From NCBI GenBank assembly GCA_902791935.1, contig CADAXQ010000001.1, forward strand, positions 105,561-169,560: a DNA stretch of 64,000 bases, given 5' to 3'. Both the position numbers and the translations under genes were made by a program. Positions 25,012-29,757 of the stretch are shown here, piece after piece (position 1 is the first letter of the stretch; every line of letters begins with the position of its first letter). Origin of the DNA: an uncultured Erysipelotrichaceae bacterium (GTDB lineage Bacteria > Bacillota_I > Bacilli_A > RFN20 > CAG-826). The notes under the pieces are model-generated. The model searched no databases and was not told where the DNA came from. It saw nothing but the letters and a program-made list of their open reading frames with translations.

Positions 25012-25554
25012 TTAGTCGGACCATTGGTAATGCAGATTAAGATGGGCCTCTGAATTGTCGGTCGCGGTAGTATCATCCACGAGATGGGCCATATATCCAT
25101 ATTGGTCAAAGGTAGCCGTCATTTTCGTGGTGGTCGTTGTTCCGTCTGATAATTCGGTCGATTCACCTTCGACCTTAAAACCGTCACCCACATAATATTT
25201 CACGTTTCCGTCAGTAGCGTTCAAATCGCCAGCTTTCACATTGGCGAAGGTAACGACCATCAAATCCATCACATAATTCGCGCTGGTGATATCCGCGGTT
25301 GCTGAATCGTACATCTCACTCGTGGCGTCATAGGTTAAGACAAAGTCTTCGTACTTCTTTTCGACTTGGGTGCCGCTCACAGACATCTTGATACTGCCAT
25401 TCACCTTACAAGACCGATAGGTATGCGCTTCTATCTTCGTGGTTGCTCCATGAAATTCGTCATAACTGACTTGATGAAAATTGCCGCCTCCACAAGAAGT
25501 GATGAGCAAAGCGCTCATGCCCAAAAGCGCCAACTTATGAAATGTGGTTTGCAT
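25012..25554 (-). CDS. Hypothetical lipoprotein
   Basis: 180 aa. Signal peptide MQTTFHKLALLGMSALLITSC with a lipobox. GGAGG lies upstream of the ATG. Confidence 0.7.
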   Translation of the reverse strand: MQTTFHKLALLGMSALLITSCGGGNFHQVSYDEFHGATTKIEAHTYRSCKVNGSIKMSVSGTQVEKKYEDFVLTYDATSEMYDSATADITSANYVMDLMVVTFANVKAGDLNATDGNVKYYVGDGFKVEGESTELSDGTTTTTKMTATFDQYGYMAHLVDDTTATDNSEAHLNLHYQWSD

Positions 25555-25835
25555 CGTATTACCTCCGTGGTATAGACATCTATTAAATATGGATGCCTTT
25601 TTGTTATTTACATTCTAAATAAGGTAATAGATTGGCTCAATACGATTTTCTAGAATCGCAACAATTTAGCAACATATTCAACTTTTATCAAAACAAAACA
25701 TAGTGTAGATGATGAAACATTGCAAATACAGTCATGTTTCAAGAGGTTCTAAGCTTTATTTTATTTAGAGGCCGAGAGCGAGAGCGATACAAAGTCCTTA
25801 TCTGCTGCATCGCCCGCTTTCTCAAAAAAAATAAT

Positions 25836-26612
25836 ATGCACTCGGCATATCCTTTGGATCCCGACACCTACAAAAACGCTTCTGATGCCATCGGGAAACG
25901 CTTCTATTTCCGTAATCTTCACACGTTACGGAACGCCATCGCCTATCAAAACACCTTTGATGCCAGTATTGTCATTGACTCGGTCGAGATTACCGGCGTC
26001 ACTTCAGACAGTGGTTTTTCGACGATTTATTGTTCTTCCACTCTTTGGTCCAGCCTCGTTAACTTGAAAACTTGTTATGGAGATTCTATCCGGGTGCAAA
26101 CGGGAAAAGAAGAGATCGCTTCGATTACGAAGCAAGGTTTCCAATTCGAAACAAATGAAGCAAACACTGTTTGTTTCTATCACGACCTTTTCTCCGATTC
26201 TTTCCTTCCGGTGGCCATCGGCATCGAAGTTCTTTTCGGTTCCTTATCGTTATTCTTATTTGCCAATATGCTTCGACAAATCCTGAAATCCAAGGAAAAG
26301 GAATACTGTGTCTTATCGATCGTCGGGGTTCCAAGACGGCAGATCATCGGGAATATTGTCTCTTATTCCGCCACATTACTCGGTCTTGCCTTCTTGCTCT
26401 CCTGGGGCGGTGGATCATTATTCCTTTACTTGCTAAATCTTTTGTTCCGTTCCCCACAATCGTTCCAGTTGTCCTTCTCTTTGCTTTCATTAAACGGTTG
26501 GTCATTACTGATTGTCTTTGGACTCGTGCTGCTTGACATCGGCATCATCGTGCTTCGTGGATTAAAAAATCACCAACGCAAAGAATCTTTCTGCGAAGTT
26601 ACGTACCTTTGA
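25836..26612 (+). CDS. FtsX-like permease domain protein lacking TM1 (probably truncated or decayed)
   Basis: The C-terminal half has three TM segments and the FtsX-type loop KEKEYCVLSIVGVPRRQIIGNIV. There is no N-terminal TM and no partner ABC ATPase nearby. The start is uncertain (track ORF begins 25734; first plausible ATG 25836). Confidence 0.4.
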   Translation: MHSAYPLDPDTYKNASDAIGKRFYFRNLHTLRNAIAYQNTFDASIVIDSVEITGVTSDSGFSTIYCSSTLWSSLVNLKTCYGDSIRVQTGKEEIASITKQGFQFETNEANTVCFYHDLFSDSFLPVAIGIEVLFGSLSLFLFANMLRQILKSKEKEYCVLSIVGVPRRQIIGNIVSYSATLLGLAFLLSWGGGSLFLYLLNLLFRSPQSFQLSFSLLSLNGWSLLIVFGLVLLDIGIIVLRGLKNHQRKESFCEVTYL

Positions 26613-26701: not shown

Positions 26702-27439
26702 ATGGAAAAGATTTTGATCAGTGCCTGCTTAGTTGGAGAGAAAACCCGTTATGACGGCGGCGATAACTACGCCCCCTTCGTGGAAAAACTCCGGGAAAAA
26801 TATGAATTAGTCCCTTTCTGCCCTGAAGTGGCAGGAGGTTTATCGATTCCCCGAGAGCCTTGCGAAATCCGGGGTGCCGATGTCGTGACGAAAGATGGTG
26901 CTTCTAAAGCCAGCGAATATCAACTCGGCGCCAAGAAAGCTTTAGAGGCGTGCCGCCTCTTTGGCATCTCTATCGCCGTCTTAAAAGAAAGCTCTCCTTC
27001 TTGCGGAGTCAGAAATGTCTATGATGGCAGATTCCGGCAAACGAAGGTAGAAGGCAAAGGAATCACGACCCGTCTCCTCGAGGCAAACGGAATCCACGTC
27101 TACTCCTCACTAGATGACTTAAGCTTCTTATGGGAAGAAGAACCAAAACCAGCAAGAACCCGTCGTTCTCATTACGGTTCGAAGTCAAATTCCGTCAAAG
27201 AACGGAATATCACTTCCGAAAAACCGGTTGCAAGTCAGTCCGAAGAAAAGCCATTCTCCGCGAAGAAGAAACCGTTCCATGGTAAGAAATCATTCCATGG
27301 CAAGAAGTCCTTCGGAGATAAGAAGCCATATGGTTCGAAGAAATCCTTTGGAGAGAAAAAATCCTATGGGCACAAGAAACCCTACTTCTCCAAACCAGGA
27401 CATCATTCGTTCCACAAATCTGCATCAAAAGAAAAATAA
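26702..27439 (+). CDS. DUF523 (YbbK/TudS-like) protein with a lysine-rich hexapeptide-repeat tail
   Basis: The N-terminal ~145 aa (ILISACLVGEKTRYDGG...CPEVAGGLSIPREPCEI...SPSCG) match the DUF523 Cys pattern. The C-terminus has seven KKxFxG-type repeats encoded at 27266-27391. Confidence 0.8.
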   Translation: MEKILISACLVGEKTRYDGGDNYAPFVEKLREKYELVPFCPEVAGGLSIPREPCEIRGADVVTKDGASKASEYQLGAKKALEACRLFGISIAVLKESSPSCGVRNVYDGRFRQTKVEGKGITTRLLEANGIHVYSSLDDLSFLWEEEPKPARTRRSHYGSKSNSVKERNITSEKPVASQSEEKPFSAKKKPFHGKKSFHGKKSFGDKKPYGSKKSFGEKKSYGHKKPYFSKPGHHSFHKSASKEK

Positions 27440-27640
27440 AATAGATGCCGGGGTAATTCTCGACATCTTTTTTGTTCGGTCAATCATTGTCTGATGCAGT
27501 CATTAAAACAACATTTTGTTAAAAAAATACTTGAACCACAGATTTGTTTATTTTAACAATTTGTCGACGGAGGTTTATTATGTCTCCGTTTCCGTCAGCG
27601 TTAGCCTGCCATTTCGTTGAAGGTAGAAAGGCAAACAACG

Positions 27641-27697
27641 ATGCGAGATTTAATTATCTTGCTTCTTGCGCTTGCAATTCTCCTCCTACTCTTGTAG
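27641..27697 (+). CDS. Candidate 18-aa hydrophobic mini-ORF MRDLIILLLALAILLLLL (speculative)
   Basis: ATG at 27641 with AAAGG 9 nt upstream. It ends in CTCTTG TAG TAG, inside a sequence block duplicated 270 bp downstream. Confidence 0.3.
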   Translation: MRDLIILLLALAILLLLL

Positions 27698-27766
27698 TAG
27701 GAAACGAAAAAGTGTTCAAGCCAAGTGATTGGTTTGAACACCCAACGCAAAAATAGGTTAACACCT
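27689..27766. repeat. Repeat copy 1 (CTCTTGTAGTAGGAAAC ... CCAACGCAAAAATAGGTTAACACCT)
   Basis: It shares both end blocks with 27957-27998. Copy 1 carries about 36 extra nt between the blocks. Confidence 0.85.
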
Positions 27767-27911
27767 TTCCGAGGCAACTGCAAGATGGCAGGATACTGGT
27801 TGTCTCGGTTTGTGACGGACATATATTCTATCCCGGATTAAATTTTTGTAGATCATTAAAATCGATCTCGTTGTCGTTTCACAATTCATAAAAGATAAAA
27901 AGGTGGAAACG

Positions 27912-27965
27912 ATGAAGGGAAAACGTCTTTCACCCGTTCTTCCATTTTTCCTTCTGCTCTTGTAG
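27912..27965 (+). CDS. Candidate 17-aa hydrophobic mini-ORF MKGKRLSPVLPFFLLLL (speculative)
   Basis: ATG at 27912 with AAAGGTGG ending 5 nt upstream. It has the same CTCTTG TAG TAG ending as the first mini-ORF. Confidence 0.3.
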   Translation: MKGKRLSPVLPFFLLLL

Positions 27966-27998
27966 TAGGAAACCCCTAACGCAAATAGGTTAAGACCT
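27957..27998. repeat. Repeat copy 2 (CTCTTGTAGTAGGAAAC CCCTAACGCAAATAGGTTAAGACCT)
   Basis: Direct comparison with 27689-27766. Confidence 0.85.
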
Positions 27999-28061
27999 CT
28001 TATCGTTATTCTTAAGAAGGGCACGTTGTACCCTTTATCAATAAAAGCACATACCTATGAT

Positions 28062-28095
28062 AAAAAAGGCCCATGTCCCAAAAGGAACATAGGCC
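28062..28095 (-). terminator. Rho-independent terminator after the ABC ATPase gene
   Basis: Minus strand: GGCCTATGT-loop-ACATGGGCC followed by TTTTTTAT. Confidence 0.65.
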
Positions 28096-28118
28096 ATTTA
28101 TAATCGCAGAGAATTCGA

Positions 28119-29663
28119 TTAGGCAATGCGTTTTTCGCTGCCAGCATCGAAGAGGTGCGCTTTCTTGACGTCGAAGAGAATATCCATCTCATCGCCGAGC
28201 TTAATCTCATGAACCATCGGGATCTTGCAGACTAAGTCATCGATGCCACCGAACTTCGTATGGACATAGTATTCATGACCAAGAAGTTCTGCGACAGAAA
28301 CACTGATATGGAACTTCACACCACCATACTTCTCCATATGGGCTTCATCCCCTTCATGGATGTCTTCCGGACGGAGACCGAAGATAATATCGCTTTCGCC
28401 TTTAAGCGCGTCTTGGCAACGGGCGATTTCTTTCTCATAATGTTCGGCTTTTGCCTTGGCGTAGGCATCGGCTGCCAATGCGATCTGATAGGGATCAGAC
28501 GCATACTGGGCTTCGGTTGCTTTCACTTCATCAAGTTTGGCTTGCGCTTCGGCTCTTGCCACATCGTCTTTCGCGACTTTCACCGCATGTTCGGCTTGTT
28601 GGACGCTCTTGGCAAGCGGATTTCCACCCTTGTCTAAGATTTCTTGTCCACGTGCCGTCATCTTCGTCATAAAGGCCGCTTGTTCTTTCTTTAACGATTC
28701 GACTTCTGCCGCATAGAAACGGGCATAGGATTGCTTGAAGGCGTCATCCAAGGTAATGGTTTCGCCAGACGGGAACGCTAAGACGCCGTCTTTGTAATGG
28801 GCCCGCATGAGGTTCATGGCTGGCGAGCCGATGAAGCTTGCGACGAACACGTTTGCCGGCTTGTTATAAATTTCAAGCGGCGTGCCAATTTGTTGGATGT
28901 GGCCGAGTTTCATGACGACGATACGAGTGGCCATCGTCATGGCTTCGGTCTGGTCGTGTGTGACATAGATCGTGGTCGCATGGAGCGATTCATGAAGTTT
29001 GATGATTTCGGAACGCATCTGAACCCGGAGTTTTGCGTCCAAGTTGGACAAAGGTTCATCCATCAAGAAGACTTTGGCATTACGGACAATGGCACGGCCT
29101 AACGCGACACGCTGTCTTTGACCACCCGAGAGAGCTTTTGGCTTCCGGTCGAGATATTCTTCGATTTGAAGAATCTTCGCGGCATCGTGGACCCGTTTGT
29201 CGATTTCGGCTTTCGGCATGTGACGAATCTTTAAGCCGAACGCCATGTTGTTATAAACGGTCATATGCGGATAAAGCGCATAAGACTGGAAGACCATCGC
29301 GATATCGCGGTCTTTCGGGGATTTGTCGTTCGCATATTCGCCATCGATGTAGAGTTCGCCGTTTGTGATGTCTTCCAAACCGGCGATCATCCGAAGCGTC
29401 GTGGATTTGCCGCATCCCGAAGGACCGACAAACACGATGAATTCGTGCTTCTTGATGTCGATGGAGAAGTCATAGACGGCTTGAATGCCATTGTCATAGA
29501 CTTTGTCGACATGGCGCAGGATGACGTAGCCATTCGGATCCAATGGTTCATTGGCTTCCATGGCTTCGATTTCTTTGGCACGCTCTTCCACTTCTTTTTT
29601 CGTGACGAGCGGCTGGCCGTTCAGAATTTGTTCTTCTGTGGCCGCTTTCTTATTTTTCTTCAT
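28119..29663 (-). CDS. Sugar ABC transporter ATP-binding protein (MsmK/MsmX/MalK-like) with N-terminal extension and a ~106-aa helical insertion
   Basis: Walker [10 protein letters not shown], signature LSGGQRQR, Walker [10 protein letters not shown]-loop YVTHD, and a C-terminal MalK-type regulatory domain. Start set at MKKNKKAAT (29663). No permease or binding-protein gene is adjacent. Confidence 0.9.
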
Positions 29664-29757
29664 AAGGTGATGTTTGGTCTCCCTTTCTTTTATGGCTATT
29701 ATAGCATGGCTTCCAAATTCATGTTGTGCATTGTGCATAAATTAAATAAAAAGCAGA

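Follow-up and report, generated by a model that had tools for sequence, protein, structure and literature searches.

Two tandem paralogous modules with tiny hydrophobic reading frames in an intergenic cassette of an uncultured Erysipelotrichaceae bacterium

In a 64,000-nucleotide (nt) stretch of contig CADAXQ010000001.1 from an uncultured Erysipelotrichaceae bacterium (hereafter, the window), a spacer at positions 27440-28118 separates a plus-strand DUF523 gene (26702-27439) from a converging minus-strand gene encoding an MsmK-like ABC ATPase (28119-29738). Each gene has its own terminator, as reported in an initial annotation of the sequence, in which every coordinate proved to be accurate. 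Between the two terminators lies a cassette of 585 nt (27476-28060), which carries two paralogous modules (module 1, 27588-27815; module 2, approximately 27834-28060), each with a small open reading frame (ORF) for a hydrophobic peptide of 18 and 17 amino acids (aa), respectively. This cassette is real, non-random and an orphan, and is apparently under constraint.

Architecture and origin of the cassette

The initial annotation had described a sequence block that occurs twice in this region. The block is real and is in fact 35 nt long (block A; 86% identity between copies, self-BLAST E = 2e-7). Its last 17 nt (CTCTTGTAGTAGGAAAC) were found exactly twice in the window (27689-27705 and 27957-27973), against a chance expectation of 0.11 matches with up to three mismatches allowed. 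In both modules, block A is followed by a second block (block B; 84% identity, E = 4e-4). Homology was wider than previously recognized, as it also covered the stretch from the Shine-Dalgarno (SD)-like run to the start codon (A[G/A]AAAGG...AACGATG), and identity between copies varied along the modules (Table 1). The two mini-ORFs differed in length by exactly 3 nt, and copy 1 contained a 36-nt insertion relative to copy 2 (27706-27741), formed by an A5 run and a perfect hairpin. A further hairpin, predicted within block A (27684-27702), encloses the last leucine codons and both stop codons.

The mini-ORFs, their SD-like sites, their double TAG stops and a 58-aa ORF were all present where they had been annotated. 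Small ORFs (<60 aa) for hydrophobic peptides, preceded by an SD-like site and starting with ATG, included mini-ORF1, mini-ORF2 and a 38-aa ORF belonging to another allele of module 1. Under a strict filter (SD and ATG, 14-25 aa, at least 70% hydrophobic residues), one ORF in the window passed, namely mini-ORF1, and Markov shuffles yielded 0.27 such ORFs per window. A single ORF of this type is therefore unremarkable genome-wide; it is the paired arrangement of the mini-ORFs that lifts the locus above chance.

Two roles suggested by the composition of the peptides were considered and dropped. Hydrophobic signalling-peptide precursors of the SHP, PrgQ or iAD1 kind have a basic N-terminus, followed by a hydrophobic C-terminus ending at the stop codon. 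Mini-ORF2 (MKGKRLSPVLPFFLLLL) has this composition and falls into the same length class; however, mini-ORF1 has no basic N-terminus, no family match was obtained, and no RRNPP/Rgg receptor gene is adjacent, the neighbours being the DUF523 gene, the ABC ATPase gene and, next to it, a gene for a PucR-type HTH_30 regulator. A pheromone role is thus very unlikely, and was dropped because of the missing receptor gene. The four to five, mostly rare, leucine codons located directly before the stops, which overlap a hairpin and precede further hairpins, could instead suggest leader peptides of ribosome-mediated attenuators. This is contradicted by the gene layout, as no plus-strand gene lies downstream and what comes next is the terminator belonging to the converging ATPase gene (which ends at 28119), and we regard it as the least credible of the explanations considered.

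The window was identical, base for base, to a 170-kb metagenome contig over the 8.7 kb compared, and the same DUF523 protein was encoded on at least 23 contigs. From the sample and the labels of the metagenome-assembled genomes (MAGs; RUG, STEW, SHIW), we infer that the species originates from the rumen. The nearest syntenic relatives, one of them bearing the label of an Erysipelotrichaceae MAG, have DUF523 proteins with 71% and 66% identity and share the order pheT-pheS-SpoU-YgjP-DUF523, followed by converging ABC-HTH_30-amylase genes. In these relatives, the spacer measured only 100-109 nt and consisted of two terminators back to back, with the cassette absent. The cassette of about 585 nt is therefore a species-specific insert.

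Searches for RNA families in Rfam, performed on both strands of the window and on strain sequence L003 with gathering and permissive thresholds (E up to 10), gave nothing above noise (STnc430, rli28, SurC and ylbH; 13-26 bits), and scores of 13-23 bits for the best matches compare with thresholds of 42-80. The initial annotation had also raised the possibility that the blocks were the 5' end of a longer gene, and no intact gene of this kind was found in relatives. With hmmscan against Pfam-A and NCBIfam (E up to 10), no match was obtained for any of the candidate peptides or minus-strand ORFs, the mini-ORFs being queried as N-terminally extended forms of 20 and 26 aa. The 58-aa ORF, which is frameshifted or truncated in many strains, matched only the same species in a search of 5.8 billion proteins. 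The 38-aa allele had no true relative outside the species among 1.8 billion representative proteins; its matches to repeat-rich giant proteins were spurious, with scores summed from weak matches.

At the nucleotide level, a scan of metagenome contigs for the exact 17-mer returned 48 loci, all attributable to chance except the species itself; a look-alike cluster (L094, L110 and L136) corresponded to an unrelated 225-nt satellite. Three pattern scans of viral contigs and distant blastn searches against phages and plasmids found nothing related, and a scan of genome contigs with the ATPase returned 80 distant Bacillota loci that shared neither synteny nor motif. A profile of the two-copy core, run with nhmmer on 1.16 Mb of collected loci, recovered only matches that had been selected by the 17-mer. 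A dif/terminus site was rejected, as there was no skew switch, and the spacer did not match, by eye, the dif site of Bacillus subtilis. An integron attC site was likewise dropped, as the core sites did not, by eye, fit the GTTRRRY consensus.

Table 1. Features of the cassette and its borders in the window, and identity between the two copies. Energies and folds are predictions.
Feature	Position	Strand	Copy identity	Details
Intrinsic terminator, DUF523 gene (left edge of the insert)	27446-27475	+		From the sequence
Inverted repeat ACATTTTGTTAAAA / TTTTAACAATTTGT	27511-27564			17-nt arms, 82% complementary
Best sigma-70-like promoter match, module 1	27553-27581	+		TTAACA, 17 nt, TATTAT; 10/12
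Hairpin pairing the GGAGG SD, ATG 27580 in the loop	27566-27590	+		-8.5 kcal/mol
58-aa ORF, window allele	27580-27756	+		GGAGG, 7 nt, ATG
Mini-ORF1 (MRDLIILLLALAILLLLL) with TAG TAG	27641-27700	+		Coding 27641-27694, stops 27695-27700; AGAAAGG upstream at 27625-27631
Block A, copy 1	27671-27705	+		7-bp hairpin 27684-27702 inside (UCCUACU / AGUAGGA), -7.2 kcal/mol
Candidate antisense unit	27703-27852	-		Consensus prediction only
A5 run and perfect 13-bp hairpin, copy 1 only	27706-27741			-18.8 (+) and -15.2 (-) kcal/mol
Block B, copy 1 (CCAACGCAAAAATAGGTTAACACCT)	27742-27766	+		Repeat comparison
Hairpin then UUUGUGA, weak candidate terminator of module 1	27769-27808	+		Predicted fold
Promoter-like site, module 2	27800-27827	+		TTGTCT, 16 nt, TATATT; 9/12
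Mini-ORF2 with TAG TAG	27912-27968	+		Coding 27912-27962, stops 27963-27968; SD AAAGGTGG
Block A, copy 2 (27939-27973) and block B, copy 2 (27975-27998)	27939-27998	+		
Small hairpin AAGGG...CCCTT, module 2 3' region	28016-28036	+		Both polymorphisms here in the loop region
Terminator, MsmK-like ATPase gene (right edge of the insert)	28068-28095	-		12 pairs then T6 run
Leader			44%	Pairwise alignment
SD to ATG			75%	Pairwise alignment
ORF, 5' half			30%	Pairwise alignment
ORF, 3' half, stops and GGAAAC			86%	Pairwise alignment
Block B			84%	Pairwise alignment

Variation among strains and constraint on the spacer

Comparison of strains (sequences designated by L numbers) gave 13 distinct spacer sequences, among which copy number varied within the species, with either one or two modules. 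In L005 and L006, a 268-nt deletion ends at the two copies of block A and reflects recombination across the repeat (17-mer). The product is a single hybrid unit, in which the promoter, leader and ORF of module 1 are joined to the 3' part of module 2.

The base at 27644, directly 3' of the ATG of mini-ORF1, was found in three states. A C, as in the window and five other distinct sequences, gives the 18-aa mini-ORF1; a T (L003) gives ATG TGA; and the base is deleted in L002, L008, L169, L170, L172 and L173. The deletion is probably the commonest haplotype, since the linked ATPase allele was found on 24 contigs. In the deletion allele, ATG 27641 opens a polar frame of 28 aa, and the hydrophobic tail becomes the C-terminus of the 38-aa ORF (MSPFPSALACHFVEGRKANNDGDFIILLLALAILLLLL), which starts at ATG 27580, 7 nt after GGAGG. 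Mini-ORF1 is present in the window as it had been described, but it is just one of three alleles. Overall, the hydrophobic tail of module 1 was in frame with an SD and an ATG, as part of an 18-aa or a 38-aa ORF, in 12 of the 13 sequences, and mini-ORF2 was intact in all ten sequences with a module 2 (one S7L variant). At least one translatable hydrophobic ORF is retained in each sequence that spans the spacer completely.

Mobile elements of three different kinds were inserted in the spacer across strains. L003 carries a 242-nt element resembling a miniature inverted-repeat transposable element (L003 5101-5342, after window position 27800), located in the hairpin at 27769-27808. This element has terminal inverted repeats (GTAGTTATTGGGT...TTTGTTTCTA / TAGAAACAAGTTACCCAATAATGAC) and a GC-rich structured core, and is flanked by an 18-nt duplication of window positions 27783-27800; it had no match in Rfam and no other copy in the window. 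In L169, a transposase gene (218-1258; 346 aa), which we take to be IS1595-like from our own reading of the sequence, is inserted at the junction 27546/27547, which lies 6 nt upstream of module 1's predicted -35 hexamer (TTAACA) and leaves this hexamer intact. The third kind, a DDE_Tnp_1 / DUF772 insertion sequence (IS) with a 550-aa transposase, was found in L008 (1896-3548) and L176 (3286-4745) next to the ATPase terminator (window position of about 28069). Contigs of this last haplotype often end at that insertion.

A spacer that tolerates a 268-nt deletion, this small inserted element and two different IS insertions in different strains, in which start-proximal null alleles are common, and whose content is limited to one species with no homologue found, might hold nothing but the decaying debris of an old insertion or gene remnant, with no present function. 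Polymorphism argues against this. In a comparison based on few sequences, picked by identical flanking proteins and affected by recombination (all four gametes were present for 27652 x 27753), the cassette contained 11 segregating sites in 585 nt, versus 35 in 525 fourfold-degenerate sites of four neighbouring genes, and was thus 3.5-fold less polymorphic (Fisher p = 6e-5). At this rate, the spacer evolves about as slowly as an average coding position. The mosaic conservation between the two copies, from 30% to 86%, is also hard to explain without constraint or gene conversion. We consider debris an unlikely explanation.

With regard to RNA structure, all five single-nucleotide polymorphisms (SNPs) of module 1 were neutral for the plus-strand minimum-energy fold, three of them being unpaired. 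The other two, C27644U and A27776G, retain wobble pairs; for A27776G, the resulting G-U pair exists only on the plus strand.

Promoter-like sites, predicted folds and a candidate antisense unit

Promoter-like sites precede both modules on the plus strand (Table 1). For module 1, the best match has a predicted transcription start near 27588, downstream of the ATG at 27580; a weaker match (TTGAAC, 18 nt, AACAAT) would include this ATG in the transcript. The inverted repeat at 27511-27564 is a possible operator, since the -35 hexamer falls within its right arm.

Folding predictions place the SD-like runs and AUGs of the units in paired regions. Module 1 folded far better than shuffled sequence (z = -6.7), and the first copy of block B was predicted to pair with the leader at 27600-27619 (-17 kcal/mol; 1% of shuffles equal). 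A long-range 5'-3' pairing common to both modules was not retained, as it was significant in module 1 only. Pairing favours the plus strand: three hairpins contain G-U pairs that, read from the minus strand, would become A-C mismatches.

On the minus strand, a single candidate unit was predicted. Its promoter-like site (TCTACA, 16 nt, TAGAAT; 27852-27825) is a consensus-level match (9/12), and the predicted RNA of about 115 nt (27817 to 27703) would consist of a 5' hairpin, a linker and a terminator hairpin with U5; read on this strand, 27706-27741 forms a hairpin followed by UUUUUCGUUU, which is terminator-like. According to the fold prediction, most of the linker is single-stranded; it is complementary to both copies of block B. 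The initial annotation had suggested the conserved 3' block as a possible pairing site of an antisense RNA. No antisense gene is predicted opposite either ORF, and the sole candidate ends before mini-ORF1.

Further to the left, a TGnTAAAAT extended -10-like site (27550-27558) on the minus strand points towards the U-rich side of the DUF523 terminator and could define a divergent RNA of about 105 nt (27434-27543). The weak Rfam match to STnc430 (23 bits) falls in this region. The DUF523 terminator, being U-rich on both sides, could stop minus-strand transcripts as well.

Interpretation and comparison with known systems

The reading that we tentatively prefer is that the units are translationally masked mRNAs for tiny hydrophobic membrane peptides of the type I-toxin kind, with an unproven antitoxin. 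Each plus-strand unit would start with a promoter-like site, followed by a structured leader in which a CU-rich tract pairs with the SD-like purine run and with the AUG. A leucine-rich ORF of 17-18 codons would then follow, with its last codons and the UAG UAG stops in the conserved hairpin, and finally the conserved 3' block. The two diverged tandem copies would be kept redundantly, with copy number shifting by recombination across the repeat. The units would be transcribed and translated, their peptides may be membrane-active or toxic, and antisense control, if there is an RNA partner, would best be assigned to the minus-strand RNA 27817-27703, through its linker complementary to block B. 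The comparison of the two copies favours translation, as SD, start, frame and stop are all conserved. Further points in favour of this reading are the intact mini-ORF2 and the in-frame tail of module 1 across strains, the predicted pairing of SD and AUG, the folding of module 1, the G-U pairs favouring the plus strand, the low polymorphism of the spacer and the occurrence of the locus as tandem, single or absent.

Several observations weigh against this reading. Downstream of the stop codons, conservation between copies matches that upstream of them. In the apparently commonest haplotype, mini-ORF1 as such does not exist, and the 38-aa ORF that replaces it starts upstream of the transcription start predicted from the best promoter. 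All four polymorphisms in the mini-ORFs alter or destroy the peptide (one nonsense, one frameshift, L4F and S7L), and none is synonymous. Codon usage of the mini-ORFs is poor, with a score of the codon adaptation index type of 0.47, versus 0.66-0.75 for the neighbouring genes, and their leucine codons are mostly rare CUN codons, which would be expected where the feature that counts is a CU-rich tract in the RNA. The peptides have no homologue in 1.8 to 5.8 billion proteins. On the antisense side, no minus-strand promoter-like site was predicted to the right of mini-ORF2, and none for an antisense RNA of module 2; moreover, L005 and L006 keep mini-ORF1 intact while the candidate antisense unit is deleted, which argues against a classical toxin-antitoxin dependency. 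Within the species, the data favour constraint at the RNA level over constraint at the peptide level, in view of the null and non-synonymous variants, the SNPs neutral for the fold, the codon usage and the conservation past the stops.

The main rival, which we consider possible but somewhat unlikely, is that the units are sibling non-coding small RNAs (sRNAs) of the plus strand. The CU-rich, anti-SD-like tract would pair with the purine-rich arm, the conserved blocks would act by base pairing or protein binding, and the ORFs would be by-products of the tract. Besides the rare CUN codons, the conserved 3' sequence and the folding of module 1, this explanation would account for the nucleotide-level constraint over the whole spacer, and for the five module 1 SNPs, which are neutral for the fold yet disruptive or non-synonymous in every reading frame. 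Both differences between copies in the arm of the block A hairpin are wobble-compatible. On the other hand, beyond the small hairpins of blocks A and B, the predicted structures are not common to the two copies, and the pairing between leader and block B is significant in module 1 only. The conservation of AAAGG...AACGATG, the in-frame length difference and the double stop are left unexplained, and there is neither an Rfam match nor a homologue on which covariation could be assessed.

Sibling CU-rich sRNAs are known in Firmicutes, namely LhrC1-5 of Listeria and the csRNAs of streptococci. Like the cassette, these occur as tandem paralogous short units within one spacer, with CU-rich tracts complementary to the SD (CUCCUCC, CCUUCU). 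In the cassette, in contrast, the CU tracts are predicted to be paired rather than exposed, and no family match was obtained.

For the preferred reading, that of masked mRNAs for type I toxin-like peptides, a parallel exists in population behaviour. Chromosomal type I toxin loci are tandem or single depending on the strain, show similarity beyond the ORF, and are replaced by a short spacer in close relatives that lack them, a tandem/single/absent pattern that has been described for the loci of zorO, ibs and ldr (Fozo et al. 2010, PMC2887945). Duplication in tandem and polymorphic presence or absence among close relatives, which are typical of type I loci without being strictly defining, were both seen here. 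The proposal of a type I locus in the initial annotation is in part supported, by the duplicated units of SD, ATG, hydrophobic ORF and double stop and by this population behaviour, but not by an antisense gene opposite the ORFs. To our knowledge, no type I system has been characterized in Erysipelotrichaceae.

Among the individual systems, the annotated likeness to the Ibs/Sib loci of Enterobacteria holds for peptide size (17-19 aa), for composition (nearly all hydrophobic), for the presence of several copies per spacer and for the fact that such ORFs are missed by gene callers. Kinship is nevertheless rejected: no Pfam, NCBIfam or Rfam match was obtained, and hence none to Ibs models or a Sib-like RNA; the cassette has no promoter/terminator pair for an antisense RNA opposite the ORFs; its host belongs to a different phylum; and one of its ORFs is polymorphic at the start. 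The ZorO-OrzO and ZorP-OrzP systems of Escherichia coli O157 also consist of tandem paralogous small hydrophobic ORFs with similarity beyond the coding sequence, present in two, one or no copies in related strains, with a short spacer where absent (PMC2887945). ZorO, however, is 29 aa long, and its divergently encoded sRNA, which pairs with the 5' untranslated region, is proven, whereas the antisense RNA of the cassette is a candidate only, and overlaps the 3' region of copy 1 alone.

In this last respect, the cassette resembles the 3'-overlapping systems of Firmicutes (TxpA/RatA, BsrG/SR4 and Fst/RNAII), as the candidate RNA 27817-27703 would overlap the 3' untranslated part of module 1 and has the usual shape of an sRNA (hairpin, predicted largely single-stranded linker, terminator). 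The TxpA, BsrG and Fst toxins, at 33-59 aa and with charged tails, are unlike the peptides of the cassette, which has no match in Pfam or Rfam and whose candidate antisense RNA is dispensable in L005 and L006.

A more elaborate proposal, that the cassette represents a new lineage-restricted family of type I-toxin-like peptides, in which a single-base indel directly after the internal ATG switches the hydrophobic helix between 18-aa and 38-aa forms with different translation starts while the paralogue and an antisense RNA complementary to the shared 3' block act as a buffer, appears rather improbable. If the peptides are real, the locus would provide Erysipelotrichaceae with an orphan family of membrane peptides of very small size, possibly toxins, and would illustrate how copy number and reading frame of such genes vary naturally in a gut population in the wild. 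Should the units be non-coding, they would serve as a caution that CU-rich RNA arms can give rise to hydrophobic mini-ORFs that lie in tandem and follow an SD. In either case, general importance is limited, as the locus is confined to one uncultured species.

Some additional features were observed in the neighbouring genes. The 3' region of module 2 (27999-28014) shares an exact identity of 16 nt (CTTATCGTTATTCTTA) with an FtsX-like coding sequence (26243-26258; E = 0.008), which is probably due to chance; if the spacer were transcribed from the minus strand, the RNA would be complementary to the FtsX-like mRNA at this site. Derivation of the cassette from the FtsX-like gene was discarded, given that the similarity amounts to just these 16 nt. 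At its C-terminal end, the DUF523 (PF04463) protein has a tail of Lys-rich repeats (window 27230-27439; KKPFHGKKSFHGKKSFGDKKPYGSKKSFGEKKSYGHKKPY), and its counterparts in relatives vary in length between 225 and about 420 aa. The length of the MsmK-like ABC ATPase is 514-539 aa, versus 413 aa in the relative L143, and the extra length appears to correspond to an Ala/Lys/Glu-rich segment located before the C-terminal TOBE-like region. Finally, a lipoprotein gene and the FtsX-like gene (25012-26612) are located between the YgjP-like and DUF523 genes. Strains L002-L006 lack these genes or carry truncated forms, and the sister species have neither; the two genes thus form a second strain-variable island flanking the DUF523 gene.

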